From: an uncultured Vagococcus sp.
Lineage (GTDB): Bacteria; Bacillota; Bacilli; Lactobacillales; Vagococcaceae
Assembly (NCBI RefSeq): GCF_963518325.1
Contig: NZ_CAUQJB010000007.1
Span: 66,388-90,387 of the forward strand
DNA: 24,000 nt
Direction of reading: 5' to 3'
Part shown: piece after piece, positions 3,253 through 23,569 of the stretch
Layout of the letters: the number at the start of each line of letters is the position of its first letter
How positions within the stretch are numbered: the stretch's first letter is position 1
Program-made: the position numbers and the translations under genes
The notes under the pieces: generated by a model
Database searches by the model: none
The model's input: the letters and a program-made list of their open reading frames with translations, nothing else
What the model was told of the DNA's origin: nothing

Positions 3253-3326
3253 GTTTTAGGGAATTCAAAGGGTGGTTTTTGATAATGCGTTACTTTTTGC
3301 ATTTTAAAAATGAAAAACAGCTATTT

Positions 3327-3340
3327 TTAAAACGGTTTCA
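3327..3340 (+). promoter_or_regulatory. Candidate CcpA cre site overlapping the putative promoter of the PTS operon
   Basis: TTAAAACGGTTTCA matches the cre consensus TGWNANCGNTNWCA at 13 of 14 positions (position 2 is T, not G). A TATACT -10 candidate lies at 3348-3353. Confidence 0.3.
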
Positions 3341-3374
3341 TATTAGGTATACTTTAATAGAAAGGAGCAGTCAT

Positions 3375-5267: not shown

Positions 5268-5276
5268 GAGAATGAT

Positions 5277-5585
5277 ATGGAGACACAGGAAAAAGATATA
5301 TTTCAACTTATTGCCATTTCAGGGGACAGTCGAGGGGCGGCATTTGCGGCTTTGCGACTTGCTCGTAAAAAAAAATATGATGAAGCGACGCAAAAATTAG
5401 AAGAGGCCCGTCTGAAAGCAACGGAAGCACACAATATTCAAACAGCCCTAATTACAAAAGAAATCAATGGGGACAGTGATCCAGTAACTCTTTTAGGCGT
5501 CCATGCTCAAGATCATTTGATGACGACACTGTTGGCACGAGATTTAATTGAAGAACTAATTATGTATATGGAAGAACGAGACTAA
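5277..5585 (+). CDS. PTS lactose/cellobiose-family EIIA component
   Basis: 102 aa. It starts 9 nt after the regulator stop, with a TAGGAGAA SD. Three-helix-bundle type sequence with the conserved VHAQDHLM phospho-His region. Confidence 0.9.
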   Translation: METQEKDIFQLIAISGDSRGAAFAALRLARKKKYDEATQKLEEARLKATEAHNIQTALITKEINGDSDPVTLLGVHAQDHLMTTLLARDLIEELIMYMEERD

Positions 5586-5602
5586 CCAAAGGAGGAAATA
5601 AC

Positions 5603-5929
5603 ATGAACATTTTATTAGTATGTGCAGGTGGTTTTTCAACCACAATGATGATGGAAGAAATGAAGAAAGTAATCAATGGGTCGAAAAAATTGGATATTGC
5701 TGATTTTCCAATGGAAGCAGTAGGTGTAGATCGACTGCCAAACGTGATTGATGATTATGACGTGATTTTAGTTGGTCCCCAGTTAAGTCATAAATTTGAT
5801 TATGTCAAAGGGGAAGGGGATCAACGAAACATCCCAACGGTCTTATTAACATCGGAAATATATGGGGCAATGGATGGGGCAACAGTCGTGAAACAAGCGA
5901 TTTTAGCTTACCGTAAAAATCAAGCTTAG
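5603..5929 (+). CDS. PTS lactose/cellobiose-family EIIB component
   Basis: 108 aa with an AAAGGAGG SD. The N-terminus MNILLVCAGGFSTTMM carries the active-site Cys typical of cellobiose-type EIIB. Confidence 0.9.
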   Translation: MNILLVCAGGFSTTMMMEEMKKVINGSKKLDIADFPMEAVGVDRLPNVIDDYDVILVGPQLSHKFDYVKGEGDQRNIPTVLLTSEIYGAMDGATVVKQAILAYRKNQA

Positions 5930-5940
5930 GAGGTAACAAG

Positions 5941-7281
5941 ATGGAAAATGGTAAAGGGTTTTTTGGTAAAATTGAAGGATTAATCGGCAAAACATTAGTT
6001 CCAATTGCCAATAAAGTTGACAATCAACCGCATTTAACGGCGGTGAAGAAAGGGATGGTTGTGCTAACGCCAGTACTACTTTTAGGGTCAATGGCAGCAA
6101 TCTTTCCATCCATTCCAGAATTTATTCAAACGAGTGGCGTTCAGAATTGGTTTGAGACATACGGTTATATTTTTGATTTGATTACGAAAGCCACACTTGG
6201 TTTAGTTGGTCTCTATGCCGTAATGGGCATTAGTTATTTTCTGAGTGAGCAATATCAATTGTATACGATTGGTTCGGTTTGTCTCTCATTGATCGGTTTT
6301 CTTCTCGTCTCTTTAAATGTGGATGAAAATGGCAATATCGTTTCGACTTATTTGGATTCAAAAGGTCTTTTTACAGGGATTTTTATCGCTTTAATCTCTG
6401 TTGAAATTTATCGCTTTTTTACAAAACATAAGTTAGTGATTAAAATGCCGGAAGGGGTGCCGGATTTTGTTTCCAGCTCCTTTGAATTGATTACTCCAAC
6501 GGCTGCAATTGGTGTGCTCTTTATTATTATTAGAATGATTACTGATTCTTTAACAGGAGGTGTCTTACTTCCACAAGTAATCATGAACGTTTTAGCGCCT
6601 GCAATTGGAGGCATGGATTCCCTTTGGGTGATCTATTTAGTCTTAGTCTTACGGTTAACTTTTTGGTTTTTTGGGATTCACTCTGCGGTGTTATCAACCA
6701 TTATATCGCCAATTATTGTGCAATACTTATCAGAAAATATTTCAGCAAAAGCTGCTGGTGAAGTATTACCTCACGTATTAACTGGTGGTGGGATGTCAGC
6801 ATACGCAAATTTCACAGGTTCTGGTGTAACGATTGGTCTGGTGATTGCGATGATTCTAAGCAAGTCCAAACGCTATAAAAAAGTTGGTGCAGTTGCTTTA
6901 CTGCCATCTTTATTCGGTATAAATGAACCGGTTCTTTTCGGGGTACCGATCATCTTAAATCCAATTTTAATGATTCCGTTTATCTTTGGTGGTTCTTTAG
7001 TGGGCCTCTTGCCATTTGTTTTTATGAAGTTAGGTTTCCTCAATTATCCAATATTCGATCCTCCGTATGTTCCGGTCTTTCTTGAAGGTTTTTTAGTCGG
7101 ATTTGATTGGCGTTCAATTATTGCCAATGGGTTACAAATTATTTTGTCAGTCGGCCTATACTGGCCTTTCTTTAAAGTGTTAGAGAAGCAGGAATTAATC
7201 CGTGAACAACATGTTGAAGCGTCTAAACAATCGATTATTTCAGATGAAGATGAAGGCTTATTAGGAGATTTGGATTTTTAA
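5941..7281 (+). CDS. PTS lactose/cellobiose-family EIIC permease
   Basis: 446 aa, polytopic, with a TAGGAGG SD. Contains the family-typical PSLFGINEPVLFGVPIILNP segment and the N-terminal GKTLVPIANKV...HLTAVKKGM segment. Confidence 0.92.
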   Translation: MENGKGFFGKIEGLIGKTLVPIANKVDNQPHLTAVKKGMVVLTPVLLLGSMAAIFPSIPEFIQTSGVQNWFETYGYIFDLITKATLGLVGLYAVMGISYFLSEQYQLYTIGSVCLSLIGFLLVSLNVDENGNIVSTYLDSKGLFTGIFIALISVEIYRFFTKHKLVIKMPEGVPDFVSSSFELITPTAAIGVLFIIIRMITDSLTGGVLLPQVIMNVLAPAIGGMDSLWVIYLVLVLRLTFWFFGIHSAVLSTIISPIIVQYLSENISAKAAGEVLPHVLTGGGMSAYANFTGSGVTIGLVIAMILSKSKRYKKVGAVALLPSLFGINEPVLFGVPIILNPILMIPFIFGGSLVGLLPFVFMKLGFLNYPIFDPPYVPVFLEGFLVGFDWRSIIANGLQIILSVGLYWPFFKVLEKQELIREQHVEASKQSIISDEDEGLLGDLDF

Positions 7282-8369
7282 TGATAACTAACCAAATAAA
7301 TCCTAGAGTAGAAAAACTTCAACATTATTTATCAACCCAATCGATTGAGGGGCTGTTAGTAACCGATAAGCCTAATAAATTTTATTTATCAGGCTTTAAT
7401 GGAACAGATGTCGCTCTTTTAATCACCAAAGACCTTTCGTGGATTATTGCTGATGGTCGTTATTTGGAAGAAATAAAAAAAGAAGTAACAGGTTTTAGTG
7501 TGATTGATAATAAGGGAGATATGATTAAGACGCTTGTCTCCCTTGTTAAAGACCAACAGTTAACTTGTTTAGCTGTTGAGGCAGATAATCTAACCCTTAA
7601 GTGGTTTTTGGAGATGCAACATGGATTAAAGGGGCAATGTGACCTCTTTCCGACACAACATATTATTGAGCAGTTACGAATGATTAAAGAGCCAGCTGAA
7701 TTAGCTATTTTAAAAAAGGCAGCTGAACTAACTGATTTGGTCTATGATCATTGTTTGAAAATTACTAAACCAGGAATGACAGAAGCCATGCTTGCGGTTG
7801 AACTTGAACATTATATGAGACAGCAAGGGGCAGATGGTTGTTCATTCGAAACAATCGTTGCTTCTGGTAACCGTAGTGCGATGCCTCATGGTCATGCCAG
7901 TCATAAGTTGTTGGCTAAAGGTGAGCTAGTGACCGTCGATTTCGGCGTAAGGTATCAGGGGTATTATACTGATATGACGCGAACTTTTGCAATAGGCCAG
8001 GTTATGCCTGAATTGAAACATATCTACAAAATTGTCAATCTGGCTGGCTTAAAAGCTTTTGGGGAATTAAAGGCAGGCATGACAACAGGTGATTTGGATC
8101 AGATTTGCCGCGATTATATATATCAGGCGGGTTATGGTGATTATTATAATCATGGTACCGGTCATGGGATTGGCTTAAGTTGCCATGAATATCCCTATAT
8201 TAAAACTGGCTTAACAGAGGTGTTGCAGAAAGAAATGACGTTTACGATTGAACCGGGTATTTATTTGCCCGATTATGGTGGTGTTAGAATTGAAGATGAT
8301 ATTTATTTGAATAGTCAAGGATATGGAGAAAGTTTGACTAAATCAACGAGAGATTGGATTGAATTGTAG
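7281..8369 (+). CDS. M24B-family Xaa-Pro aminopeptidase/dipeptidase (PepP/PepQ/YpdF-like)
   Basis: 362 aa. The ATG overlaps the EIIC stop (TAATG, 7279-7283). All pita-bread metal ligand motifs are present: VTVDFG...YYTDMTRT, HGTGHGIGL, FTIEPGIY, VRIEDDI. Confidence 0.92.
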   Translation: MITNQINPRVEKLQHYLSTQSIEGLLVTDKPNKFYLSGFNGTDVALLITKDLSWIIADGRYLEEIKKEVTGFSVIDNKGDMIKTLVSLVKDQQLTCLAVEADNLTLKWFLEMQHGLKGQCDLFPTQHIIEQLRMIKEPAELAILKKAAELTDLVYDHCLKITKPGMTEAMLAVELEHYMRQQGADGCSFETIVASGNRSAMPHGHASHKLLAKGELVTVDFGVRYQGYYTDMTRTFAIGQVMPELKHIYKIVNLAGLKAFGELKAGMTTGDLDQICRDYIYQAGYGDYYNHGTGHGIGLSCHEYPYIKTGLTEVLQKEMTFTIEPGIYLPDYGGVRIEDDIYLNSQGYGESLTKSTRDWIEL

Positions 8370-9403
8370 TGAAAAAACAATTAATAGACCTCATGAAAGC
8401 TGATGCTATTGCCGGTAGAGAGCAGGAAGTACGAAGAGTCATTATCGATTATTTGACCCCTTTTGATATCAAGTTAGAAAGAGATGGTTATGGCAATCAA
8501 TATGCTTCATTAACTAATGGCAGCCAAAAACCTAAACTAATGATCATCGCCCATATGGATGAAGTCGGATTTATGGTCAAGCATATAACCGCAGATGGGT
8601 TTATTTATACTCAACCTTTTGGCGGCTGGAATTCCCAAGTTGTTTTGGGCCAACGGGTGACGGTGACGAGTAGACAAAAGGGAAGCAAGTATCGAGGTGT
8701 TTTTGGAACGACAGCAAAGAAAGGGCAGAACCCTCAAGAACCAGTGACATTAGGAGAAATGTACGTAGACATTGGCGCCAAAAATCAGAGTGAAGTCGAA
8801 GCTTTGGGCATTCAAGTAGGTGACATGATTACGCCTTCTGGTGAGATCGAGGAGTTACCTAATAATTTGATTTTAGGCAAAGCTTTGGATGATCGGTCAG
8901 GTTGTGTAATTTTACTGGAAGTTTTAAATCGTTTATCAAAAGAAGCACATTTAAATGTGGAAGTTGTTGGAGTCTTTTCTGCTCAAGAGGAAGTCGGTAC
9001 CCGAGGTAGTTTTGTTGCCGCTGCTAAAATCAACCCTTATGAAGCCTTAATTTTAGATGTGGCCACAGCCAAAGACACACCAGGAGCCGATCAATATCAA
9101 AATCGTTGCTTAGGACATGGCCCTGGCATTGTTTGGTTTGATAAGACGGCAGTCTCAGATGTCAAGCTAAGTGATAGAGTGATAGCCATTGCAAAAAAAG
9201 AGGGGATTCCCTTCCAGCACGACGTCTTTGCTGGTGGTGGAACAGATGCAGGTTCGGTACAATTAGCAGGTGGTGGCGTGCCAACTGTCGGATTAAGTCT
9301 CGGTGTTCGCTATTGTCATAGCGGCTCTTCTATCGCTAGTTTAGTTGATATGGAGGCATCAGTCAATCTAATCGTGGCTTATGTAAAATCAATTAATAGA
9401 TAA
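8369..9403 (+). CDS. M42-family aminopeptidase (FrvX/YpdE/PepA/CelM-like)
   Basis: 344 aa. The GTG start overlaps the M24 stop (TAGTG, 8367-8371). M42 motifs are present: AHMDEVGFMV, ALDDRSGC, SAQEEVGTRG, and a C-terminal CHS region. Confidence 0.92.
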   Translation: MKKQLIDLMKADAIAGREQEVRRVIIDYLTPFDIKLERDGYGNQYASLTNGSQKPKLMIIAHMDEVGFMVKHITADGFIYTQPFGGWNSQVVLGQRVTVTSRQKGSKYRGVFGTTAKKGQNPQEPVTLGEMYVDIGAKNQSEVEALGIQVGDMITPSGEIEELPNNLILGKALDDRSGCVILLEVLNRLSKEAHLNVEVVGVFSAQEEVGTRGSFVAAAKINPYEALILDVATAKDTPGADQYQNRCLGHGPGIVWFDKTAVSDVKLSDRVIAIAKKEGIPFQHDVFAGGGTDAGSVQLAGGGVPTVGLSLGVRYCHSGSSIASLVDMEASVNLIVAYVKSINR

Positions 9404-9492: not shown

Positions 9493-10251
9493 CTATTTCT
9501 TGAAGACAGCATAATATAAGCCACCAACCATCACGGCGCCGCCAACAATATTTCCCAGATAGACTGGAATAAAGTTAAGGATAAACTCAGTCCACGTGGC
9601 ACCATTTTCAAAAATAGCTGCGGCAATGATAAACATATTAGCGACACTATGCTGAAAACCTATGGCCACAAAGGTTGTGACAGGAAACCAAATTCCTAAG
9701 TACTTGCCAACCGTATCTTTTGTTCCGTAGCATAACCAAACCGATAGCCCAACGAACCAATTGCAACCAATTCCTGAGACAAAAGCTTGTAGAAAATTGA
9801 CATTAATTTTTGCAGATGCAACTCTTAAGGTTTCATGCAAATAGTCGCCTGTGGCTGTTAAACCAACAATATGGCCAAAAAAATAGGCAACAAATAACGC
9901 ACCAACACTATTAGCCAGAGTAATGATCAAGAAATTCAAGCTTAATTCTTTGGTGGAGACCTTTTTATCAAACCAAGCAGTCGCCACTACAAACATATTG
10001 CCCGTAATTAATTCGCCGCCGCCTAGTAAAATAACGATTAAACCAATTGGGAAAATAGCAGCACCAATCAGACTGGCAAAGCTACCCCATTGTTCCGCAA
10101 TGGAAGAAATAACGCGAATATACGCCAAATAGCCCAAGGAAATCATGGCGCCTCCAATAAACCCTAAGATTAATTTTGCTTTTAGGGGTTTGTTGACTTT
10201 AGCAACCCCTTTTTTGATAGTGATGGCTAGTGTCTCTTCAAGTGAGTACAT
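9493..10251 (-). CDS. Formate/nitrite transporter (FNT) family channel, FocA/NirC-like
   Basis: 252 aa, six TM. FNT signature regions GGGELITGNMF and GFQHSVANMF are present. TGGAGG SD 7 nt upstream. Lies directly downstream of hutU on the same strand. Confidence 0.9.
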   Translation of the reverse strand: MYSLEETLAITIKKGVAKVNKPLKAKLILGFIGGAMISLGYLAYIRVISSIAEQWGSFASLIGAAIFPIGLIVILLGGGELITGNMFVVATAWFDKKVSTKELSLNFLIITLANSVGALFVAYFFGHIVGLTATGDYLHETLRVASAKINVNFLQAFVSGIGCNWFVGLSVWLCYGTKDTVGKYLGIWFPVTTFVAIGFQHSVANMFIIAAAIFENGATWTEFILNFIPVYLGNIVGGAVMVGGLYYAVFKK

Positions 10252-10319: not shown

Positions 10320-12344
10320 TTAGTTGAATAAGTCAGCCACTGCTTTATGGACTTTTTCTTCATCTGTTAGATAAGGAATCGTGATGTGATCCGTGCCCGC
10401 TCTCATCTCATTGTATTCAATCGATGTTTCAATGGCGTGCTCGTTTCGTGCCCAGCTTCTACGGGCGACACCGCCCATTGTATCCCAAGCAATCGCTGAT
10501 TTTATAATCTCATCACACAACTCGCTACCATCTAAGACCATTCCAAAGCCACCGTTTACTGACTTGCCGATGCCAACACCGCCACCATTATGAAGGGCAA
10601 TTAAGCTCATACCTCTTGCAGCATTACCAGCGAAACATTGAGTGGCCATATCAGCGGTGACATTGCTTCCGTCTTTAATATTAGAGGTTTCTCTAAATGG
10701 TGAATCCGTGCCTGAGACATCGTGGTGATCCCGACCTAACATGACGGGCCCGATTTTTCCATCACGAATCAATTCATTAAACTTCAAGGCAATGTTAATG
10801 CGACCCATAGCGTCCTGATAAAGGATACGTGCTTCGGTACCAACTACTAGCTGATTTTTTTCAGCGTCGCGAATCCAATTATAATTATCTCGGTCCTGAT
10901 AACGGCGGTTTGGATCAATGGCTTCCATGGCTGCTTTGTCAGTCGCCATTAAATCTTCATGCTTGCCGCTTAGACAGACCCAACGGAACGGACCGTATCC
11001 ATAATCGAAGAGCATTGGTCCCATGATATCTTCCACATAAGAAGGCCAGATAAAGCCGTCTTTATCATCGACACCATTTTTTGAGATTTCTTTGATACCT
11101 GAGTCGTAGATTGCTTTCATAAAGGAATTACCGTAGTCAAAGAAATAGGTTCCTTTGGCTGTTAATGATTTAATGACATTAAAATGACGTTCCAATGTCT
11201 TATCAACCAAAAATCTAAATTGTGCCTGATTATCTGCTAATAACTGAGTTCGCTTATCGAAGGTGATGCCGATAGGGCAGTAACCGCCTTCATGGACATT
11301 ATGGCAAGAGGTTTGATCCGATAACAAATCGATGTGAACATCGTGCTGATCCATGTATTCTAGCAACTCAACAATATTACCATGGTAAGCGATCGACGTT
11401 GCTTCCTTTTTATCTAGATAGGTTTTGGCAATGGCCACAGCTTCTTCAGGCGTTTTGGCTAAATTGCTAATCCAACCTTGCTCGAGGCGGGTATCGATCC
11501 GGGACATGTCCACTTCAGCGACGATGGTTACAGAGTTGGCAATTTCACCAGCTTTTCCTTGAGCACCACTCATGCCCCCTAAGCCAGAAGTAACAAACAG
11601 TTTGCCAGCCAAGTCACCTTCATCTGGAATACCTAATTTTAAACGACCGGCGTTAAGCAAGGTGTTGAACGTACCATGGACGATGCCTTGGGGGCCAATG
11701 TACATCCAACCACCAGCTGTCATTTGACCGTAATTAGTCACGCCCATTTGTTCTGCAATTTCCCAATCCTCAATATTATCGTATTCTCCTATTAGAAGGC
11801 CGTTAGTAATGATGACACGTGGCGCATCTTTTTTTGATTGGAACAAGCCTAAAGGATGACCAGATTCCACTACTAAGGTTTGCTCATCAGTCATTTCTTC
11901 TAAATAGCGTTTGATTAGGTGGTATTGCATCCAGTTAGAGCAAACTTGGCCGGTTTCGCCGTAAGTAACCAGTTCATAAGGATAGAGCGCCACGTCAAAG
12001 TCCAGGTTATTATCAATCATGACTTGCATAGCTTTGGCTGCCACACAATTTCCTTTGTATTCATCGATGGGTTTACCTTGGATACGTTCAGTTGGGTACC
12101 AACGATAGCCGTAAATCCGTCCTCGAGTGTTTAATTCGTTTAAAAATTCTGGAATCATTTGTTCATGGTATTTTTCTGGAATATACCGCAAGGCATTTTT
12201 TAACGCCAAGGTAGCTTGAGCTTGCGATAAACGAAAGCCCCTATCAGGTGCTCGACGGATACCTTCTTGAAATTTAGGCATATCGGGTAAGACATCCTCA
12301 AGTTTAATCGTCATGGATTTACTGATTTCTACATTGTTGATCAT
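10320..12344 (-). CDS. hutU: Urocanate hydratase (urocanase), long about 675-aa form
   Basis: 674 aa with a GGAGGAA SD. Highly conserved urocanase blocks are present: VTYGETGQV, GLGGMSGAQ (NAD site), YGQMTAGGWMYIGPQGIVHGT, GRDHHD, GGGVGIG. Confidence 0.97.
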   Translation of the reverse strand: MINNVEISKSMTIKLEDVLPDMPKFQEGIRRAPDRGFRLSQAQATLALKNALRYIPEKYHEQMIPEFLNELNTRGRIYGYRWYPTERIQGKPIDEYKGNCVAAKAMQVMIDNNLDFDVALYPYELVTYGETGQVCSNWMQYHLIKRYLEEMTDEQTLVVESGHPLGLFQSKKDAPRVIITNGLLIGEYDNIEDWEIAEQMGVTNYGQMTAGGWMYIGPQGIVHGTFNTLLNAGRLKLGIPDEGDLAGKLFVTSGLGGMSGAQGKAGEIANSVTIVAEVDMSRIDTRLEQGWISNLAKTPEEAVAIAKTYLDKKEATSIAYHGNIVELLEYMDQHDVHIDLLSDQTSCHNVHEGGYCPIGITFDKRTQLLADNQAQFRFLVDKTLERHFNVIKSLTAKGTYFFDYGNSFMKAIYDSGIKEISKNGVDDKDGFIWPSYVEDIMGPMLFDYGYGPFRWVCLSGKHEDLMATDKAAMEAIDPNRRYQDRDNYNWIRDAEKNQLVVGTEARILYQDAMGRINIALKFNELIRDGKIGPVMLGRDHHDVSGTDSPFRETSNIKDGSNVTADMATQCFAGNAARGMSLIALHNGGGVGIGKSVNGGFGMVLDGSELCDEIIKSAIAWDTMGGVARRSWARNEHAIETSIEYNEMRAGTDHITIPYLTDEEKVHKAVADLFN

Positions 12345-12480: not shown

Positions 12481-12513
12481 TTAGACGGAAATTAGACTGT
12501 CTAGCCTTATAAT
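12481..12513 (+). promoter_or_regulatory. Putative activator-dependent hutI promoter: TTAGAC-N5-TTAGAC-N10-TATAAT, no -35 box
   Basis: ttagac 12481-86, ggaaa, ttagac 12492-97, tgtctagcct, tataat 12508-13. The sequence at the canonical -35 position (acggaa) does not resemble TTGACA. AAAGGTGA SD and ATG at 12544. Confidence 0.65.
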
Positions 12514-12543: not shown

Positions 12544-13809
12544 ATGTTTGCAGATAAAATTTTAGTTAATTTTAGTCAGATTTTTAGCCCAATTGATAAG
12601 GGAAGACCCTTGAGAGGGAAGGAGATGGCTGAGGCGGTCATTCTTGAAAATGGTTATATCGCCATTAAGGACGGAAAGATACTCGCAATCGGCAGTGGGG
12701 AGCCAGAGGATCAATTAAAAGGTGATTCAACAGTGATTATCGATTATTCTGGCAAACTGGCGTCTCCAGGATTAATTGATTGTCACACTCATTTAGTTTA
12801 TGGCGGTAGTCGAGAAGGAGAGTTTGCAAAAAAATTAAACGGGGTAAGTTACTTGGATATTCTGAAGGAAGGGGGCGGAATTTTAAGTACAGTCAAGGCC
12901 ACTAGAAGTGCCAGTTTTGAGACGCTATATCATAAAACGAATCGACTTTTGGATAAAATGCTGATTCATGGTGTCACAACGGTCGAAGCAAAAAGTGGTT
13001 ATGGCCTGAACTGGGAAACGGAAAAGCGGCAACTAGAAGTAACTAAAACATTAACTAAAGACCATCCAATAGACTTAATTTCAACTTTTATGGCCGCTCA
13101 CGCCATACCAGAACAGTATAAAAATAATCCCGATGAGTTTATTCAATTAATCATTGATGACATGTTGCCAATGGTTAAAGCAGAGAACTTAGCAGAGTTT
13201 TGTGATGTTTTTTGCGAGACGGGAGTTTTTACAGCGGATCAATCGAGAAAACTGTTGACTGCTGCCAAAGAAATGGGCTTTAAACTGAGAATCCATGCAG
13301 ATGAAATTGATTCAATTGGTGGGGTTGACGTTGCTGCTGATCTACATGCCTTAAGTGCGGAGCATTTAATGGCTGCAACAGACGAGGGCATTCGCAAAAT
13401 GAGTGAGGCCCATGTCATTGGAAATGTTTTGCCAGGAACTACCTTTAGTTTGATGGCAGACACCTATGCGCCTGTCAAGAAAATGCTGGAGGCTGGAATG
13501 GCCATTACGCTGTCAACGGACAGCAATCCCGGGAGTTGTCCCACAGCCAACCTACAATTTATCATGCAGTTAGGCTGTTTCAACATGAAGTTAACGCCTG
13601 TTCAGGTGTTTAATGCTGTGACGATTAATGCTGCCTATTCGGTAGCGAGAGGTCAATCAATTGGGAGTTTTGATCAAGGGAAACAAGCTGATATCGCTAT
13701 TTTTGATGCACCAAATGTGGACTACCCATTGTACTTTTTTGCCACTAATTTAGTAACGGATGTCTATAAAAATGGGGAACACGTTGTGAAAAATGAGGTT
13801 CGCCACTAG
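12544..13809 (+). CDS. hutI: Imidazolonepropionase
   Basis: 421 aa amidohydrolase-fold protein. Motifs: [16 protein letters not shown] (HxH metal site), [21 protein letters not shown], and a C-terminal KQADIAIFD. Confidence 0.95.
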
Positions 13810-13822
13810 TAAAAGTAAAACG

Positions 13823-13856
13823 AAAGCTCCATTTAAACTGTAAATGGAGCTTTTTC
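13823..13856 (+). terminator. Rho-independent terminator after hutI
   Basis: Perfect 13-bp stem aaagctccattta (13823-35) / taaatggagcttt (13841-53) with a 5-nt loop and a T-run. Confidence 0.9.
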
Positions 13857-13960
13857 CCATAACTTCTCCTTTGCCCCTATATTTCGAAAGCGTTTTATCG
13901 TAAAATAGGGGGATAGACCGTTAATGATTTTCGGTCGATGTATTTGAGCTTAGGATATGG

Positions 13961-16900
13961 ATGAAAGAAGGTGAGACCTTGAGTAAAGTTGTATACGGTC
14001 AATTATTTGGAAACCCTGAGATTTTTGTCGATGGGAAATTGATGCTGTTTTCATTTACTAAAATTAACGCCCTACTTTATTATATGCTTGTTAACAGGAA
14101 AGTTAGTCGTGACGAATTATCAGGTTTATTATGGCCGGATATGGATGAAAAAAATGCTAAAAAGAATTTACGCAATACGATCTATCAGGCCAATAAAAAA
14201 TTAGGAGGAGACTATATTTGTTCGCCAAACAAATTCGTCTTGAGTTTAAACGATGAGTTAACTATTACAAGTGATGTGGAACAGTTTAAAGACAATCCCA
14301 GCGATAATTTATCCCTCTATGATGATAGTTTTTTAAAAGGCTTCTATTTAAAAGATTGCGAAGAATTCGATGCATGGACAGAGAAAATGCGAAGCTTTTT
14401 TGAGAAAAAATTTCTAAATGAGTGTTTCCGCAATGTCACTCAAGACATTGAGGAAAAACGTTTTGAAATGGTTGAAAAAAAATTACAAAAGTTAATTAGT
14501 CTGGATGAGTACGATGAGCGGCACTATCAATTGCTGATGCGTTATTATTATGAGGTAGATAGACATGAAAAAGTCATCGAAGTCTTTTATCATTTGGCAG
14601 ATGTCTTAAATTCGGAACTAGGAATTGCTCCAAGCCAAGAAACTCGCGATATTTTCGAATGTTCAGTGACGATGGTTAATAAAAATTTAGTGATTAATCG
14701 GCGCTTTACCACTAAATTTTTTGGTCGCATTGAGGAAATTCAATTGTTGGAGGCAAATTTCATCAAATTTAATCACAATGAAATGTGTCAATCTGTTTTT
14801 GTGAAAGGCGATATGGGCGTCGGTAAAACTAGTTTAGTAAACCGAGTCCTAGATAACGCGCCATATTTTCATATACTGGAAACCCAATGCTACGAAGTGG
14901 AAAAGTCTTATGATTTACGAGCTTGGCGTAAAATAGTCAATCAGTTATCTCAGTTAAGTGAGCATTATGGGGTAAGGCCAATACATTGGCAGGGAACCCT
15001 TGATCGTTTTTTTCCTAATATTGAAGATCCGTCGTTGGACAGGACATTTGCAGACGACAAGCATATTGACTTAAATGCATTGTCACAATTATTAATAGAA
15101 GCCATAAGAAAAATCAGTCACTTTAAGAAACTCGTCTTGGTTTTTGAAAATATTCAATGGTTAGATGATATGAGCTTTCAACTGTTGGTCAGTGTTATGC
15201 TGCATCTGAAAAATAAAGAAGGGATCTTTATTTTTACCTCGCGGAACGACATGAATTTAAGGCTTGTGAATTTTTTAACGACAATCAATTGTTATGAGTT
15301 ATTAATCAGCCTTACTCTGGAGCCTTTAACATTGGCCGAAACTCAGGAATTTTCAAGAAATGAACTTCTCAATCAAACACCTTCCCCTGATACCTTAGGG
15401 GAGTTATACCAATTAACGGAAGGGAATTTTTTCTTTTTAACTGAGTATATTAACATGATACGAAATAACGATCAGATTGATATTATGACCGTACGAATGC
15501 AAGATGCTTTGAGAAATCGATTTAGTAGTCTAACAGATGTTGAAATGAAAGTGGTTGAAGTGGTGGCTTACTTTTATGATTATGTTCCTGTGGAGCTATT
15601 GGCGGAAATTGTTAATTTACCTGCGTTTGAATTGGCACAGGCAGTTGAACATTTAGTAAAAGAAAACATTTTATTGGAACTTTTTGTTAGTGACGAAGTC
15701 ATGATTTGTTTTAGTCACAATCGTTTGAGGGAATTTATTTACATGAATCAGATGGTTTCAAAGAAACTCCTTTTGCATAAGGAGATTGCTTGTTTAATGG
15801 AAAAATCTCGAATGAGCAATATTAACGATCATTTGATTTTCGCAAAAATTGCCTATCATTATGAGCAGGCAAAAGAGTGGTTAAAATCGTTGGATTTTCA
15901 GTTACGATATTTGCAAGGTTACTTTAAATTCTATCACGAATTATTTCCGATCAATGCCATTCCAAATGATAGGTTGATGACAAACCCTGATCTTTGGAAA
16001 AAAGGAACCATCAAAGAGTTTGATAAAATTCGGCAAAAATTAGAGGAATTAGCACCTGTTTATCAAGATGATCACAGGTACTTATTATTGGCAATTCGCT
16101 TTTATAATATGGAGGGGCGCTATTTCATTCGTCAGGGAAAATACGAAAAAGGTCTTGAAGACATTCATTACGTCATTCGTGTTTCAAAAGAATTAAATGA
16201 CAGTCACTTTTTATTAGAAGGTTATAAACAAATGATTTATTATTGCATTCAAATTGATAATAGTCGTGAAATGCATGACTACCTTGAATTAGGACTGAAT
16301 GAGGCAATACGCAGCAATAATCATGAGTCTATTGGGATATTATTACGTTTAAAGGGCTTGAACTATTTAATGACAGGTGACTTATACATGGCGGAGCGTC
16401 AATTAACCGAATCAATCAATACCTTCTCTATCACGGATACGATTAAGGATAAATACAGCATTAATATTGCAGCAGCCTATGACTATTTAGCTGAGATTAG
16501 AAGTATTGAAGAAAATTACCCAGAAGCAATTAGACTACAGCAATTAGCGATCGATCTCTGCGAAAACAAAGGGGCATATTCAAGTCTATCTGTCTTTTAT
16601 ATTAATATGGGTGTTATTCTTTTTGGGAATGAGCAGTACTCGGAAGCAAAAATATATTTTGACAAAGCCTATAAGATTTACGAGGAGTTTTCTTCATTGT
16701 GGAAGAGACCCCAGTTAGACGCCTATATGTCTTTAATCAACCTTTATCAAGGGAACTATCAAGCTGTTTTTGTCTATTTAATCAGCTCGAAAAAATACAT
16801 GGAACGATTCGCTAATCCACGAGATATTGGGACTATTTATTTCGCTGAAGCGATGATTAAACGGCAGTTAGTTAAAGAAAACCATCAAGATAATAAGCTT

Positions 16901-17038
16901 TGGGAAATGCTTGATCAAGATGAATTATTTTATTTCAGAAAAGCCTTGGAGTATTTAAGCCCCAACCGAAATAAACTAGAGACAAATTTATTAAAAAGAA
17001 CCTTTAAACCTGAAGAATTAATAAATGGACTTAGATGA
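13961..17038 (+). CDS. Large SARP/AfsR-like transcriptional regulator: OmpR-type winged helix, BTAD, P-loop STAND (AAA/NB-ARC-like) ATPase and C-terminal TPR-like repeats
   Basis: 1025 aa. The winged-helix segment is INALLYYMLVNRKVSRDELSGLLWPDMDEKNAKKNLRNTIYQANKKLG. The BTAD segment is EYDERHYQLLMRYYYEVDRHEKVIEVFYHLADVLNSELGIAPSQETRDIF. Walker A is VKGDMGVGKTSL and Walker B-like is LVLVFENIQWLDDMS. The C-terminal about 400 aa is helical-repeat with Y/A/L periodicity (AAAYDYLAEI, EAIRLQQLAI, AKIYFDKAYKIYEE). The start could instead be the TTG 18 nt downstream. Confidence 0.85.
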   Translation: MKEGETLSKVVYGQLFGNPEIFVDGKLMLFSFTKINALLYYMLVNRKVSRDELSGLLWPDMDEKNAKKNLRNTIYQANKKLGGDYICSPNKFVLSLNDELTITSDVEQFKDNPSDNLSLYDDSFLKGFYLKDCEEFDAWTEKMRSFFEKKFLNECFRNVTQDIEEKRFEMVEKKLQKLISLDEYDERHYQLLMRYYYEVDRHEKVIEVFYHLADVLNSELGIAPSQETRDIFECSVTMVNKNLVINRRFTTKFFGRIEEIQLLEANFIKFNHNEMCQSVFVKGDMGVGKTSLVNRVLDNAPYFHILETQCYEVEKSYDLRAWRKIVNQLSQLSEHYGVRPIHWQGTLDRFFPNIEDPSLDRTFADDKHIDLNALSQLLIEAIRKISHFKKLVLVFENIQWLDDMSFQLLVSVMLHLKNKEGIFIFTSRNDMNLRLVNFLTTINCYELLISLTLEPLTLAETQEFSRNELLNQTPSPDTLGELYQLTEGNFFFLTEYINMIRNNDQIDIMTVRMQDALRNRFSSLTDVEMKVVEVVAYFYDYVPVELLAEIVNLPAFELAQAVEHLVKENILLELFVSDEVMICFSHNRLREFIYMNQMVSKKLLLHKEIACLMEKSRMSNINDHLIFAKIAYHYEQAKEWLKSLDFQLRYLQGYFKFYHELFPINAIPNDRLMTNPDLWKKGTIKEFDKIRQKLEELAPVYQDDHRYLLLAIRFYNMEGRYFIRQGKYEKGLEDIHYVIRVSKELNDSHFLLEGYKQMIYYCIQIDNSREMHDYLELGLNEAIRSNNHESIGILLRLKGLNYLMTGDLYMAERQLTESINTFSITDTIKDKYSINIAAAYDYLAEIRSIEENYPEAIRLQQLAIDLCENKGAYSSLSVFYINMGVILFGNEQYSEAKIYFDKAYKIYEEFSSLWKRPQLDAYMSLINLYQGNYQAVFVYLISSKKYMERFANPRDIGTIYFAEAMIKRQLVKENHQDNKLWEMLDQDELFYFRKALEYLSPNRNKLETNLLKRTFKPEELINGLR

Positions 17039-17083: not shown

Positions 17084-18466
17084 TTACAAGGGAATCAAAT
17101 ATTTAGTGAGCATCCTAAGAGCTACTTGGGGGTGATGCTCTGCCAATAGTCCTAAAGATGAGACGATATATGATGAATCCAAATAAAAAGCTGGTTTTAG
17201 TGGTTTTAGGTGTTGGGTGTCGGTTTGAAGAGCTGCTTTCAAAATGTTTTTTGGTTGGGAACTATTAATAATGATACCACCAGTTCCGATTAACAGATCA
17301 ATTTGGCGTAAATCCTTTCCTTGCTGATAATACGTATCATGACGAGGGTGGCGTTCTCTTCTTGTAACACCGGCATGACGATCCATCCCAATTGACACGG
17401 CGATTTTAGCCATTAAGTTATCAAAGTCAGACTGGTCTGGAGTACTTGGAATAAAATCGGGATGCTGTTCCCTAAGTAAGCAGTTACGCCTTAATTCAGT
17501 CTCATCGTAGTGATGGTTGCCATAGATATTAAAGTAGTCTGGCCCCGCGGTCTCAAACAAGCTAACGGCAGAATAACGCATCCCTAAATCACCTTCGACC
17601 GTCCTTTTTAGAAATGGTTCAGGTAATCCCTCGTACAGTAGTTGCTGATCGCTAATACTTTCACATGCTGAATGAACATCAGTAGTGGCTCCACCAACGT
17701 CCACAAGAGTTATCTTTCCAAAGCCTGGGATCTTCCCACTGCCTTGAGATAAAAGCTTGACAGCATGGAGAACGGCCATTGGTGTGGGGATAATTGGCGA
17801 ATTACTTAGCTTAGCAATCTGATCAAAGCCTTTCCCATAGATGATTTTTTCAAAAAAAATTCGCCTTAACCTTTCTCTAGTATCTGTGGCTTGTATTAAA
17901 TTGACTTTTGGAAGCACATTTTCTGTCAAATAATAGGTTCTATTCATTAGAATACGTTTTATTTCAGGGGCTGCTAGACGGTTACCTGCCACAATAAGGG
18001 GAATATCTTTGTTTAGGTGCGTCAGCTTTTGAGCACAATCAAGAATAAAAGCAGTATTGCCTCCATCTGTGCCCCCAGTTAGAAGAATAACATCGGGATT
18101 TAATTGATTTATTTTCTGAATGTCTGCTGAAGAAAGGCTGTAGGAGAAGGTTTTTAGTATTCTTGTACCTGCTCCTAAAGCAACTTTTTTTGCAGCAGCA
18201 GTTGTTAAGCTATGGGTAAGACCGATAGCAACCATGTTAAAGCCGCCAAAAGCAGATGAGCAGATTAGGGTTTGATGATTAGGCAGCTGTTCTATCTTTA
18301 AATCTTCAGCCATTTTAGTGATTAGTTCTTGATAGCTATCGAATAAATTAGTCTTACTTTGAGTGTTTACCGTAATATGAGACATGATTAATTCACTTTC
18401 AAGATCAAGTAAAATAGCTTTCGTGTAAGTACTGCCAAAATCGATGGTTAAAACATTGTTTGTCAT
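17084..18466 (-). CDS. GlmL/MutL-family (glutamate mutase accessory or reactivase-like) ASKHA-fold ATPase, with no mutase partner in the window
   Basis: 460 aa with an AAAGGAG SD. ASKHA phosphate-1 motif is LTIDFGSTYTKAI, phosphate-2 is LVDVGGATTDVHS and the adenosine motif is LLIGTGGII. A LLTGGTDGGN segment is also present. Length and motifs fit the GlmL/MutL (and more distantly EutA) group as I remember it. Not verified by search. Confidence 0.7.
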   Translation of the reverse strand: MTNNVLTIDFGSTYTKAILLDLESELIMSHITVNTQSKTNLFDSYQELITKMAEDLKIEQLPNHQTLICSSAFGGFNMVAIGLTHSLTTAAAKKVALGAGTRILKTFSYSLSSADIQKINQLNPDVILLTGGTDGGNTAFILDCAQKLTHLNKDIPLIVAGNRLAAPEIKRILMNRTYYLTENVLPKVNLIQATDTRERLRRIFFEKIIYGKGFDQIAKLSNSPIIPTPMAVLHAVKLLSQGSGKIPGFGKITLVDVGGATTDVHSACESISDQQLLYEGLPEPFLKRTVEGDLGMRYSAVSLFETAGPDYFNIYGNHHYDETELRRNCLLREQHPDFIPSTPDQSDFDNLMAKIAVSIGMDRHAGVTRRERHPRHDTYYQQGKDLRQIDLLIGTGGIIINSSQPKNILKAALQTDTQHLKPLKPAFYLDSSYIVSSLGLLAEHHPQVALRMLTKYLIPL

Positions 18467-18536
18467 TGTAAATCTCCTTTCGTTAAATGAAAATTAAATG
18501 AGAAAATAATTAGTTTTTAATAAGATTTTAGAGTCT

Positions 18537-18569
18537 AATAATAAATAAAAGAATCTAAAAAACGTCAAA
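18537..18569 (-). promoter_or_regulatory. Degenerate proximal copy of the repeat-promoter architecture: TTtGAC-N5-TTAGAt-N10-ATTATT (minus strand)
   Basis: Plus strand reads aataat (18537-42), N10, atctaa (18553-58), aaaac, gtcaaa (18564-69). The spacing is identical to the exact copies. The predicted TSS is about 60 nt upstream of the GlmL-like ATG. Confidence 0.3.
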
Positions 18570-18774
18570 TAACCGGTTAGACTTAAAAAAAATTAGGCAA
18601 TGGTATCTAAACTAAAAATAGGCCCGTCCTTTAAATAGAGAAAACCATCGGATTTGTTCTGGTAATTCGTTTGTCAGTTTTTTTATGGAATCTATATGTC
18701 TAAGGGACGCTTCAAAGAGATTAAGTTCATTTGTTTTTGACGTTTTTTATTGATTGCAAAACAGATTGATGTTT

Positions 18775-18807
18775 ATTATATACCAGGTGCGTCTAAAAAA
18801 TGTCTAA
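18775..18807 (-). promoter_or_regulatory. Exact second copy of TTAGAC-N5-TTAGAC-N10-TATAAT, on the minus strand and pointing toward the GlmL-like gene
   Basis: Plus strand reads attata (18775-80), taccaggtgc, gtctaa (18791-96), aaaat, gtctaa (18802-07). The reverse complement gives TTAGAC ATTTT TTAGAC GCACCTGGTA TATAAT. It lies about 300 nt upstream of the ATG at 18466. Confidence 0.6.
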
Positions 18808-18852
18808 TTTTTATAAGAGCTAAAAAGAGGGATAGTTTTTTTAAGAAAAGTA

Positions 18853-18886
18853 GCGTCTAAAAACAATGAAATTGGCTTTTTAGTCG
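18853..18886. repeat. Imperfect palindrome built from the same hexamer: GCGTCTAAAAA-N12-TTTTTAGtCGC
   Basis: 11-nt arms at 18853-63 and 18876-86 with 10 of 11 positions complementary. Located between the divergent promoters. Confidence 0.5.
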
Positions 18887-18900
18887 CCGTTTATCAGGGT

Positions 18901-18929
18901 TTGACACGAGTTTGCCTGAGTGGTAATTT
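18901..18929 (+). promoter_or_regulatory. Sigma-A type promoter for the folT-ftcD-fchA-fhs-hutD operon (TTGACA-17-TGgTAATTT)
   Basis: ttgaca at 18901-06, a 17-nt spacer ending in TGg (extended -10), and taattt at 18924-29. Confidence 0.55.
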
Positions 18930-19042
18930 GAGAGTGTAGTAGGAAAATAGAAGATTGAAACTAAAAAGAAAGTCACTGTTTGTTCGTGAATAAAGTGTTC
19001 CATGAGTTAGGTGAATTTCTTGAAAAGGAGAGAGTATGTAAG

Positions 19043-19570
19043 TTGAAACGTACAGTTGGTTCAAAAATAAGTGCTAAAGACATTGCCTTATTAGGATTAT
19101 TAGTGGCGATTGAGGTCATTCTAACTCGATTTTTTGCAATCGAAAATTCATTTGTTAGGATTAGTTTCGCTTTTTTACCCTTAATGTTAATGGGGCATTT
19201 ATTTGGACCATGGCTGGCAGGCCTTGGCGGTATCGTTGGTGATATTGTTGGCATGCTAATTTTCCCAAAAGCCATGTTTTTTCCGGGATTTACATTTAAC
19301 GCTTTTCTTATTCCCTTTCTATACGGCGTGATGTTTTACCGAAAAGATATCAATTTGAAACGAATTGTGATGGCCCAATTACTTATTATGGGAATGGTTA
19401 GTCTAGTTTTAACGCCAATCTGGCTGAATATTCTATTCAAGATTCCTATCTTTGAGTTATTGCCTGTCAGACTATTGAAAGAGGGCATTCTTTTTCCAAT
19501 AAATGTCTTCGTCAGTTATTGTCTGTTTAATAAGACCTCCCTTGTGACCGTGATGGAGATGGGAAAGTAA
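19043..19570 (+). CDS. folT: ECF-transporter substrate-specific (S) component, folate family (FolT-like)
   Basis: The track ORF starts at a TTG at 18980. I prefer the TTG at 19043 (MKRTVGSKISAKD...) because AAAGGAGAGAG lies 8-9 nt upstream. The product is about 175 aa with 5-6 TM and has the size and N-terminal layout of an S component (DIALLGLLVAIEVILTRF). It sits directly upstream of three THF-dependent enzymes. Confidence 0.72.
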   Translation: MKRTVGSKISAKDIALLGLLVAIEVILTRFFAIENSFVRISFAFLPLMLMGHLFGPWLAGLGGIVGDIVGMLIFPKAMFFPGFTFNAFLIPFLYGVMFYRKDINLKRIVMAQLLIMGMVSLVLTPIWLNILFKIPIFELLPVRLLKEGILFPINVFVSYCLFNKTSLVTVMEMGK

Positions 19571-19645
19571 ACAATGTATTTTGTAGGTATACCGGGTAAA
19601 GGTTTCGACTTTTCCCTAGTTAGATAAATGAAAGGAAGAAGTTAA

Positions 19646-20545
19646 ATGGCAAAGTTAGTAGAATGTATTCCGAATTTTAGTGAAGGTAGAGATGAAAGCG
19701 TTATAAAGGGGTTAGTTGAGGTCGCTAAAAGTGTCAGTGGCGTTACCTTATTGGATCATTCATCAGATCCCAGTCATAATCGCAGTGTGTTCACTTTAGT
19801 CGGCGATGTTGAAGGGATTCAGGAAGTTGCCTTCAAATTAGTCAGTTATGCCACGCAACACATTGATATGACTAAACAAACAGGTGAACATCCACGGATG
19901 GGAGCAACCGACGTGGTTCCTTTTGTCCCAATTAAAGATATTACCACAGAAGAATGCGTGGAAATATCTAAAAAGGTAGCGAAACGAATTAACGATGAGT
20001 TAGATATTCCGATTTTCCTTTATGAAGAATCTGCGTCTTCACCTGATCGAGTCAACTTGGCACGTGTGAGAAAAGGACAATTTGAAGGAATGCCTGAAAA
20101 ACTAATTCAAGACGAATGGGCCCCTGATTTCGGTAGCAGAAACATTCATCCAACTGCTGGCGTGACGGCCGTAGGCGCAAGAATGCCCCTAGTAGCCTTT
20201 AATGTCAACTTAGACACATCTGATATTACCATTGCCAACAAGATTGCTAAAATTGTTCGCGGTTCTGGTGGCGGGTTTAAGTATTGTAAAGGAATCGGCG
20301 TTATGTTAGAAGACCGCAATATTGCGCAAGTTTCCATGAATATGGTGAATTTTGAAGGAACCCCATTGTATCGTGCGTTTGAGACGATTCGTTTCGAAGC
20401 GAAACGTTATGGCGTTTCAATCATTGGGAGTGAGGTGATTGGTTTAACTCCTGCTAAAGCATTAATTGATACAGCTGAGTATTATTTGCAAATTGAAGAT
20501 TTCGATTATGGAAAACAAGTATTAGAAAATCACTTATTGAATTAG
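19646..20545 (+). CDS. ftcD: Glutamate formimidoyltransferase (formiminotransferase domain only)
   Basis: 299 aa with a GAAAGGAAG SD. The hallmark N-terminus is LVECIPNFSEGRD. Also present: HNRSVFTLVG, HPRMGATDVVPFVP and GARMPLVAFNVNL. Confidence 0.93.
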   Translation: MAKLVECIPNFSEGRDESVIKGLVEVAKSVSGVTLLDHSSDPSHNRSVFTLVGDVEGIQEVAFKLVSYATQHIDMTKQTGEHPRMGATDVVPFVPIKDITTEECVEISKKVAKRINDELDIPIFLYEESASSPDRVNLARVRKGQFEGMPEKLIQDEWAPDFGSRNIHPTAGVTAVGARMPLVAFNVNLDTSDITIANKIAKIVRGSGGGFKYCKGIGVMLEDRNIAQVSMNMVNFEGTPLYRAFETIRFEAKRYGVSIIGSEVIGLTPAKALIDTAEYYLQIEDFDYGKQVLENHLLN

Positions 20546-20564
20546 GAAGAGGAGTGTCAAAACA

Positions 20565-21191
20565 ATGGAATTAGTTGAGTTGAAAGTTAACGAATTTATG
20601 CATGTTTTAGGCTCTGATGAACCGGCACCCGGTGGTGGCTCTGCCTCTGCATTAGCCGCAGCTATGGGAATTTCATTAGTTAAAATGGTAGCAGAACTAA
20701 CTACTGGCAAGAAAAAATACGCTGAGCATGAAACGATGATTCAAGAAGTGTTAGTTGAAGCGACTGACCTACAAGCGATCCTGTTAGATGCCATTGATAA
20801 AGATACCCAAGCATTTAATGTTGTTTCAGCGGTTTTTTCAATGCCTAAAGAAACAGATGAAGAAAAAACTGCAAGGCGAGAAGCAATGCAGTTGGCTTTA
20901 AAAGGGGCAGCTATCTCACCATATGAAATGATGGAAACAATTGTCAGAGGGCTTAAAGTAGTAAAAAAAGCCGTTGGAAAATCGAATGTTAATGCAGCCA
21001 GTGATTTAGGTGTAGCAGCGTTAAACTTGAAGTCTGGCCTACAAGGGGCTTGGTTAAATGTGTTAATTAACCTATCAGGAATTAAAGAAGAGGCGTTTGT
21101 TGACGGCTATCGCGGTAATGGTCAGGCATTGTTAGAAGAAGGATGTCTGTTAGCCGATGAGATTTATGAAGAAATAGTGACCTTAGTTTAG
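20565..21191 (+). CDS. fchA: Formimidoyltetrahydrofolate cyclodeaminase
   Basis: 208 aa with a GGAAGAGGAG SD. The hallmark motif EPAPGGGSASALAAAMG is present near the N-terminus, and the protein is all-helical. Confidence 0.9.
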   Translation: MELVELKVNEFMHVLGSDEPAPGGGSASALAAAMGISLVKMVAELTTGKKKYAEHETMIQEVLVEATDLQAILLDAIDKDTQAFNVVSAVFSMPKETDEEKTARREAMQLALKGAAISPYEMMETIVRGLKVVKKAVGKSNVNAASDLGVAALNLKSGLQGAWLNVLINLSGIKEEAFVDGYRGNGQALLEEGCLLADEIYEEIVTLV

Positions 21192-21216
21192 ACAGAAAGG
21201 AAGTTAATGAGATATT

Positions 21217-22893: not shown

Positions 22894-22902
22894 GGGTGAT
22901 AG

Positions 22903-23502: not shown

Positions 23503-23569
23503 GAGTGTTTTATTTGTAACCGATTTCAATAAAGCGAATCATTTCTGTTTTTTTGAAGGGAGAAAACTT

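Follow-up and report, generated by a model that had tools for sequence, protein, structure and literature searches.

The locus examined here raises the question of how hut genes are controlled in a cluster that encodes none of the described hut regulators. This pathway is controlled in other systems by HutC, a GntR-type repressor, by HutP, an RNA-binding antiterminator, and in Staphylococcus by HutR, a LysR-type protein. The window, meaning the whole stretch of DNA analyzed, comprises 24,000 nt from an uncultured Vagococcus sp. (GCF_963518325.1, contig NZ_CAUQJB010000007.1, 66,388-90,387 forward). Pfam searches of all ORFs in the window detected no GntR/HutC or HutP gene in the cluster, and no LysR-type gene was found there by Pfam either. 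Rfam returned nothing relevant at the gathering threshold across the whole window or at E<=1 over 18400-19050, no leader terminator was found in the cluster, and the hutI leader is only ~24 nt long. An initial annotation, made from the sequence, had pointed out that the described hut regulators, HutC and HutP, are of other types than the one encoded here, and the lack of such genes and of an Rfam element agrees with this.

Direct repeats in place of a -35 element upstream of hut-cluster genes

A pattern search of both strands identified exactly two TTAGAC-N5-TTAGAC pairs in the window, against a mean of 0.00 and a maximum of 0 in 100 dinucleotide-preserving shuffles. They read TTAGAC GGAAA TTAGAC TGTCTAGCCT TATAAT at 12481-12513(+) and TTAGAC ATTTT TTAGAC GCACCTGGTA TATAAT at 18807-18775(-), confirming that the two TTAGAC-N5-TTAGAC-N10-TATAAT sites first annotated contain the only exact pairs. 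Because the spacers are unlike in the two copies, they represent a common motif and not a duplicated segment. Lone TTAGAC hexamers are also enriched in the window (21 observed vs 10.25 +/- 3.3).

Both exact sites are intergenic and precede hut-cluster genes, as had been annotated: one lies 31 bp upstream of the hutI ATG, and the other 309 bp upstream of the ATG (18466, minus strand) of a gene of the GlmL family. A scan with the sigma-70 -35/-10 consensus called neither site and found no usable -35, which bears out the annotated absence of a -35 box. The hexamers stand 10 and 21 bp from the -10 element, so neither is able to serve as a -35.

The annotated pair of sites proved to be incomplete: the two exact copies stand, but their geometry recurs in two more copies, degenerate in sequence, at 12432-12400(-) and 18569-18517(-). 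The window thus holds four boxes, upstream of hutU, upstream of hutI and, twice, upstream of the GlmL-family gene (Table 1). The hutU and hutI boxes are arranged back-to-back, with 48 bp separating their outer ends. The proximal box of the GlmL-family gene has a poor -10 after its first repeat pair and no good one at the canonical distance; from its sequence, it is a candidate second promoter or operator.

Table 1. Genes, boxes and promoter features of the hut cluster in the window.
Feature	Position	Strand	Description
focA (formate/nitrite-transporter-family gene)	9493-10251	-	After hutU
hutU (urocanase)	10320-12344	-	Predicted target operon, with the transporter gene behind it
hutU box, degenerate	12432-12400	-	TTAGTC-ATTTT-ATTGAC-N10-TACAAT; predicted TSS ~12393
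hutI box	12481..12513	+	Repeats TTAGACGGAAA (12481-12491) and TTAGACTGTCT (12492-12502); -10 TATAAT (12508-12513)
hutI promoter, continued	Predicted TSS ~12520	+	RBS AAAGGTGAT; ATG 12544
hutI (imidazolonepropionase)	12544-13809	+	TIGR01224, E 3e-136; predicted target
Hairpin, 13-bp stem and T run	13823-13853		Just after hutI; likely terminator
Regulator gene (1025 aa; BTAD/AAA_16/TPR)	13961-17038	+	Domains from Pfam
GlmL-family gene	17084-18466	-	PF13941 MutL, NF040745; predicted target with two boxes ahead of it
Proximal box of the GlmL-family gene	18569-18517	-	TTTGAC-GTTTT-TTAGAT (18569-18553); third TTAGAC 18538-18533
Proximal box, continued	18522-18517	-	TATTAA, N10 after the third TTAGAC
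Distal box of the GlmL-family gene	18807-18775	-	Predicted TSS ~18768; leader ~300 nt
folT operon promoter	18901..18929	+	TTGACA, 17-bp spacer, TGgTAATTT
folT (ECF S component)-ftcD-fchA-fhs-hutD-like genes	18980-23502	+	Downstream half of the pathway

The strong hairpin and T run that follow hutI probably part it from the regulator gene as a terminator, which suggests that the regulator gene is mainly transcribed alone. In the closest relative (L001), the folT-ftcD-fchA-fhs-hutD-like operon runs on into an amino-acid permease gene and hutH, and it reaches these genes wherever the DNA extends far enough (L001, L026-L028, L030 and L032).

The protein encoded between the two exact sites resembles AfsR in predicted architecture

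The initial annotation had placed a SARP-type regulator gene between the two exact sites, and domain searches, structure prediction and profile matches to AfsR all agree with that assignment. Pfam matched the 1025-aa protein to BTAD (PF03704, E 6.4e-12, residues 114-231, above the gathering cut-off), to AAA_16 (E 1.6e-16, residues 252-416) and, in its C-terminal part, to TPR_12 (E 2.3e-8). The central part has the features of a STAND/NOD ATPase, with a Walker A motif GDMGVGKT at 283-290, of which G286, G288 and K289 are invariant in homologues, and Walker-B-like segments LVLVFENIQWLDDMS / LVLVFENIQWLDD.

An AlphaFold2 model built on 54 homologues (mean pLDDT 86, and >90 across residues 10-110) places an OmpR-type winged helix first, then the BTAD, which is helical, the ATPase domain and, last, a superhelix of TPRs. 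The predicted winged helix (wHTH) spans about residues 10-105, with strands at 11-14, 20-23 and 26-28, helices at 33-45, 50-57 and 63-81, and a wing at 93-96 and 102-104. A Foldseek search of the PDB ranked the STAND-TPR protein 6mfv first and Apaf-1 next, with CED-4 also among the matches, and aligned M. tuberculosis EmbR (2ff4) over 260 columns. The family profile matched 8k60 and 8jke, two chains of S. coelicolor AfsR, with E ~2e-5; phmmer gave no match in the PDB.

Pfam Trans_reg_C went undetected in residues 1-153, so the winged-helix call is based on the predicted fold together with similarity to the consensus. The residues invariant among the 54 homologues bunch in this domain (Y41, R50, W58, K68, N69, R71 and Y75), which agrees with a conserved DNA motif. 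The winged helix is N-terminal, and Response_reg had no match in the 1025-aa protein, that is, no receiver domain was found. As judged from sequence and model, the architecture is that of the large SARPs exemplified by AfsR. Automated annotation names some members of the family 'SARP family transcriptional activator', 'AAA family ATPase' or 'LuxR family', and NCBIfam holds no model specific to the regulator.

The regulator is linked to hut genes across Bacillota

Homologues with 26-83% identity occur in Vagococcus, Enterococcus gallinarum, Isobaculum, Streptococcus, Granulicatella, Peptoniphilus, Clostridium, Neobacillus and others. The closest, at 82-83%, belongs to V. allomyrinae, consistent with a window from a Vagococcus-like Lactobacillales genome. 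Related loci numbered 35, including those of Vagococcus, Enterococcus, Isobaculum, Streptococcus, Peptoniphilus, Neobacillus and about 20 Clostridium. The regulator adjoins hut genes in 33 of them, in many different gene orders and in Bacilli, Clostridia and Tissierellia alike; the other two loci, L018 and L020, lie on short contigs, each about 6 kb long. Such adjacency is the mark of a pathway-specific regulator. No response regulator is conserved in these loci, and the SARP-NOD-TPR protein is the only DNA-binding protein that accompanies the boxes in the three Bacillota classes.

In a Neobacillus sp. (L035, 10001-21456), a 32%-identical paralogue lies beside folD, focA, folT, folC, ftcD, fchA and fhs, whereas hutH, hutU and hutI are absent; a box, TTAGAC-N5-GTTGAC-N10-TAGACT, is found upstream of ftcD. 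This content suggests a variant regulon for the catabolism of formimino compounds or for one-carbon catabolism. In three Clostridium species (L002 14888, L003 16879 and L004 13498), a box precedes a gene, situated within the hut neighborhood, for a ~275-aa DapF-like protein (diaminopimelate-epimerase fold), which, from its family, could be an amino-acid (histidine?) racemase of the regulon.

Box sequence and geometry are conserved at hut promoters

Phylogenetic footprinting of the hut loci was positive: of the 36 sequences with an orthologue of the regulator, 31 have the box, with its 11-bp period and 10-bp gap to a -10 hexamer, ahead of hut genes, in a range that runs from Vagococcus to Clostridium, Peptoniphilus and Neobacillus. 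For the Streptococcus loci L029 and L033, the fetched DNA contained no box and ended short of the regions upstream of hutU and hutI. A comparison with V. allomyrinae shows the hutI box plus its -10 as an island of identity amid diverged sequence, and the same geometry recurs upstream of hutI in L026, L027, L028, L030 and L032. Orthologues of the hutU box fit ATAGAC-N5-(A/G/T)TTGAC-N10-TAnnnT in L026, L027, L028, L030, L031 and L032, and the degenerate hutU box was also picked up in every genome by a PWM built from the hutI and glmL sites. The spacing between the hutU and hutI boxes is constant at 48-49 bp (about 70 bp centre-to-centre) in six genomes (that of the window, L026, L027, L028, L030 and L032), and the sequence in between is not conserved; such constancy may reflect a higher-order assembly of the STAND protein over both promoters.

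The distal glmL box is kept as TTTGAC-N5-TTTGAC-N10-TATAAT, and it fits TTTGAC-N5-TT(T/A)GAC-N10-TAnnnT in all seven glmL-carrying Lactobacillales loci. When the glmL leaders of seven genomes were aligned, the distal and proximal boxes were the only conserved islands, and the proximal pair TTTGACGTTTAATAGATTC was the best-conserved island of the whole leader. A structured RNA or riboswitch in this ~300-nt leader was considered and rejected, as Rfam gave no relevant match and only the two boxes are conserved. The GlmL family (methylaspartate-mutase accessory/reactivase, PF13941) is itself a conserved member of hut clusters in Vagococcus, Enterococcus, Isobaculum and Peptoniphilus; its gene is the sole one with two boxes ahead of it, and there are no glutamate mutase genes close by. 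On the way from the distal glmL box to the folT promoter there is a single conserved half-site, TTTTAGACGCT, at 18855-18860(-), which is the same in V. allomyrinae.

Outside the Lactobacillales, de novo repeat detection in Clostridium loci recovered, for example, ATAGAC-GCTTT-AAAGAC-N10-TATAAT upstream of hutU or ftcD. In many clostridia ftcD, and sometimes hutH, carries a box, and boxes are present in Peptoniphilus and Neobacillus too.

The degenerate pattern WWGAY-N6-WWGAY-N10-TANNNT was then counted in about 23 kb of DNA flanking each regulator. In 33 sequences (1.43 Mb, both strands counted) it gave 52 matches, compared with 7.8 +/- 3.0 in locally shuffled sequence. Thirty-nine of these lie no more than 400 bp upstream of a recognized hut gene on the same strand, a zone that makes up 5% of the sequence, and most of the other 13 precede genes for a permease, FtcD, a HutG-like protein, an M20 peptidase or a DapF-like protein. 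Extending the scan to 36 sequences (782 kb) gave 56 matches, distributed over 31 of them. The count of 56 was obtained at a repeat period of 11, against 2-15 at the other periods between 8 and 15, and at a -10 gap of 10, against 5-20 at other gaps. This falling away indicates that the geometry is under strict constraint. Positions left free in the pattern are conserved as well, giving the consensus wTAGACGTTTT / wwwGAYG-N9-TATAAT. Written as heptamers TAGACNN with 4-bp spacers, the repeats span about -39 to -18, and the 3' repeat stops exactly 8 bp before TATAAT.

An exact-pattern scan of metagenomes returned 41 stretches. In three of them hutU follows immediately, and one of these three also has a regulator homologue next to it; the remaining 38 are away from hut genes, ahead of prfB, a type I restriction subunit gene, small ORFs and others. 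By our own estimate, a collection this large would contain about that many chance copies of an 18-base pattern. As most of these matches are hut-free, the sequence alone is diagnostic only in regulator-carrying genomes. In metagenome Ga0126336 (L044, L046, L047 and L051), the exact pattern TTAGACGTATATTAGACGTCTAAAGTGTATAAT occurs in tandem, about 115-235 bp apart, with no recognizable hut genes, and may represent a repeated promoter or a repeat element.

The folT-ftcD operon has a canonical promoter

The initial annotation had proposed a candidate operator for a hut regulon, and the regulon predicted here takes in only part of the hut genes: hutU, hutI and the GlmL-family gene have boxes, but the folT-ftcD-fchA-fhs-hutD-like operon has a canonical promoter. 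In 7/7 Lactobacillales loci, TTGACA-17-TGnTAnnnT precedes the folT/ftcD operon, with no box. A candidate box at the folT promoter, TTTGAC-N5-TTTGCC at 18900, was discarded as partial and unconserved, and it falls inside the canonical TTGACA-17-TAATTT promoter. No box precedes the operon of ftcD, fchA and fhs in this lineage, an operon that also carries hutH in the closest relative, so the regulator cannot be the sole hut switch here. A box-independent hutH, which would supply urocanate from histidine, fits, though it does not prove, urocanate or a later intermediate as the inducer.

A proposed AfsR-like mechanism and its alternatives

Taken together, these results lead us to propose, with a probability of roughly 0.8, that the AfsR-type activator encoded in the cluster (SARP, STAND ATPase, TPR) has the TTAGAC direct repeats as its operator, and that in this Vagococcus-like genome hutU(-focA), hutI and the GlmL-family gene are driven from the boxes. 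The motif with its conservation and geometry, the architecture of the protein and its linkage to hut genes are observed here, and from them we infer binding, activation, the TSS positions and the inducer. Two SARP domains would sit side by side on the two 11-bp repeats, which at about -39 to -18 would stand in for the absent -35, and the regulator would recruit sigma-A RNA polymerase to a good -10 hexamer by 'sigma adaptation', as for AfsR. The ATPase and TPR part would most probably turn the protein on with a pathway metabolite, that is, histidine, urocanate or a later intermediate.

By the published rule for SARPs, the direct repeats have a period of 11 or 22 bp and a distance of 8 bp separates the 3' repeat from the -10; the afs box comprises 22 bp, from -40 to -19, overlapping a poor -35 (PMC10936776). 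Small SARPs bind heptameric direct repeats with 4-bp spacers at their target promoters (PMC10972967). The 11-bp period and the 8 bp to the -10 seen here match this rule, in agreement with the SARP-like mode of replacing the -35 that had been annotated. The architecture of AfsR combined with SARP geometry at the boxes makes AfsR-like activation of -35-less promoters the most likely mode of action.

S. coelicolor AfsR shares with the present protein the domain order SARP-NOD-TPR, and its sites likewise place two 11-bp direct repeats over or in place of the -35 and leave 8 bp between the 3' repeat and the -10; the core TAGAC has three positions in common with the SARP core TCGAG. However, the similarity of the proteins is marginal (E ~1e-5) and confined to the BTAD-NOD junction, the carriers are Bacillota and not Actinomycetota, and the target is hut catabolism, not antibiotic regulation. 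The partner here would be sigma-A at a strong TATAAT -10, with no sign of Ser/Thr-kinase control. ActII-ORF4, DnrI, RedD and EmbR have the same wHTH and BTAD fold but are without NOD and TPR, EmbR having an FHA domain instead, and all are actinobacterial, cluster-situated and found in antibiotic or cell-wall contexts.

MalT of E. coli and GutR of B. subtilis offer a second parallel. Both are large ATP-dependent STAND activators with a repeat-type sensor, are encoded beside a catabolic cluster, and activate -35-less promoters through asymmetric repeated boxes, the same logic as proposed for the hut regulator. They differ in their DNA-binding domains (a C-terminal LuxR-type HTH in MalT), in their boxes and box positions, and in having no BTAD. 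Compared with HutC, HutP and HutR, the operator proposed here lies within the core promoter and is a direct repeat rather than a palindrome or a site on RNA.

The boxes might be bound by another factor, such as an OmpR/PhoB response regulator encoded elsewhere, with the SARP-like protein acting on other targets. The sites of such regulators (WalR, PhoP) share the hexamer direct repeats, the 11-bp period and the binding of tandem winged-helix domains, hexamer-N5-hexamer repeats being usual for this class, and one locus (L031) does have a two-component system beside the regulator. The protein encoded here, however, has no receiver domain, its box lies 8-10 bp from the -10 in accordance with the SARP-specific rule, and the loci conserve the SARP-NOD-TPR protein in three classes but no response regulator; we regard binding by such a factor as improbable. 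We give similarly little credence to a protein that binds the boxes yet represses, or has a dual role, by promoter occlusion. The box does overlap the core promoter, and the proximal glmL site, downstream of the distal promoter and with no well-placed -10, looks like a roadblock or operator, but a repressor role would suit that site only. The target promoters have a good -10 and no -35, the hallmark of activator dependence, whereas the box-less folT/ftcD promoters in the same clusters do have a consensus -35, and in AfsR a BTAD combined with this same geometry leads to activation.

Least probable of all, and in our judgment very improbable, is that the repeats are non-regulatory, arising from chance or composition, from weak -35-like TTGAC or from UP-like A/T tracts. 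TTGAC is indeed similar to the -35 consensus, and the scan of a very large metagenome collection found about 40 copies of the 18-base exact pattern, most of them with no hut gene nearby. Yet not one of the 100 shuffles of the window produced a match, the hexamers stand at the wrong distance for a -35, and the repeats are conserved islands in otherwise diverged intergenic DNA. The strict dependence on period 11 and gap 10, and the position of 39 of 52 matches upstream of hut genes, also argue against this reading.

To our knowledge, AfsR-like regulators have so far been studied only for antibiotic control in Streptomyces. A review describes SARPs as 'exclusively found in actinobacteria' (PMC10972967), and the activating signals of AfsR-like NLR-type regulators have been described as unknown (bioRxiv 10.64898/2026.09.02.748808). 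In the present case the carriers are Bacillota and the predicted targets are hut genes, a departure from an actinobacterial family of secondary metabolism that is one of taxonomy and usage, not of structure. Searches of open-access papers turned up nothing linking SARP, BTAD or AfsR proteins with hut genes and no description of the regulator or the box, in line with the annotated novelty of the regulon. What is known is thus the AfsR architecture and the promoter geometry; what is new is the phylum, the pathway and the motif.

The proposed regulon would fill a gap, because the open-access papers searched offer no account of hut control in those Lactobacillales and Clostridia that lack HutC and HutP, Enterococcus gallinarum and Streptococcus species among them. 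It would also widen SARP-type 'sigma adaptation' promoters to low-GC Gram-positives and primary catabolism. With a homologue tied to a pathway of four steps, only a handful of candidate ligands are left, and these can be purchased. At even odds, in our view, is the broader proposal of an uncharacterized Bacillota-wide SARP-NOD-TPR activator that senses a histidine-pathway metabolite directly, with a ligand guessable from context, and that governs the first SARP regulon outside Actinomycetota and secondary metabolism. If true, this would make it the first NLR-like SARP of bacteria with an activating ligand (histidine, urocanate, formiminoglutamate or a later intermediate) that can be so guessed, and a tractable model for the activation of this class. 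The 22-bp box with its -10 could serve as a compact activator-dependent promoter module for Bacillota engineering.

Catabolite-response elements and neighboring genes

The region 5' of the hut cluster (3279-9403) encodes, in one direction, a 662-aa Mga/PRD/EIIA-EIIB-type regulator, cellobiose-type PTS IIA/IIB/IIC components, and M24 and M42 peptidases. This pairing of PTS and peptidase genes is unusual and has no relation to the boxes.

Sites matching the cre (CcpA) consensus are not enriched in the window overall (31 vs 28 expected). A perfect palindromic cre, TGTAACCGATTTCA, lies between the hutD-like and permease genes at 23515-23528, and V. allomyrinae keeps this perfect site (L001 19562-19575). 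E. gallinarum has a perfect cre over the hutU promoter and another at the ftcD promoter (L028 8425-8438 and 15027-15040), and cre-like TGAAAGCG flanks the ftcD promoters of L026, L030 and L032. From the placement of these sites, catabolite repression is probably layered onto the hut system. More speculatively, a cre-like TCGAAAGCGTTTTATC with two mismatches is located at 13884-13899, just 3' of a weak promoter-like site (13854-13883) ahead of the regulator gene.
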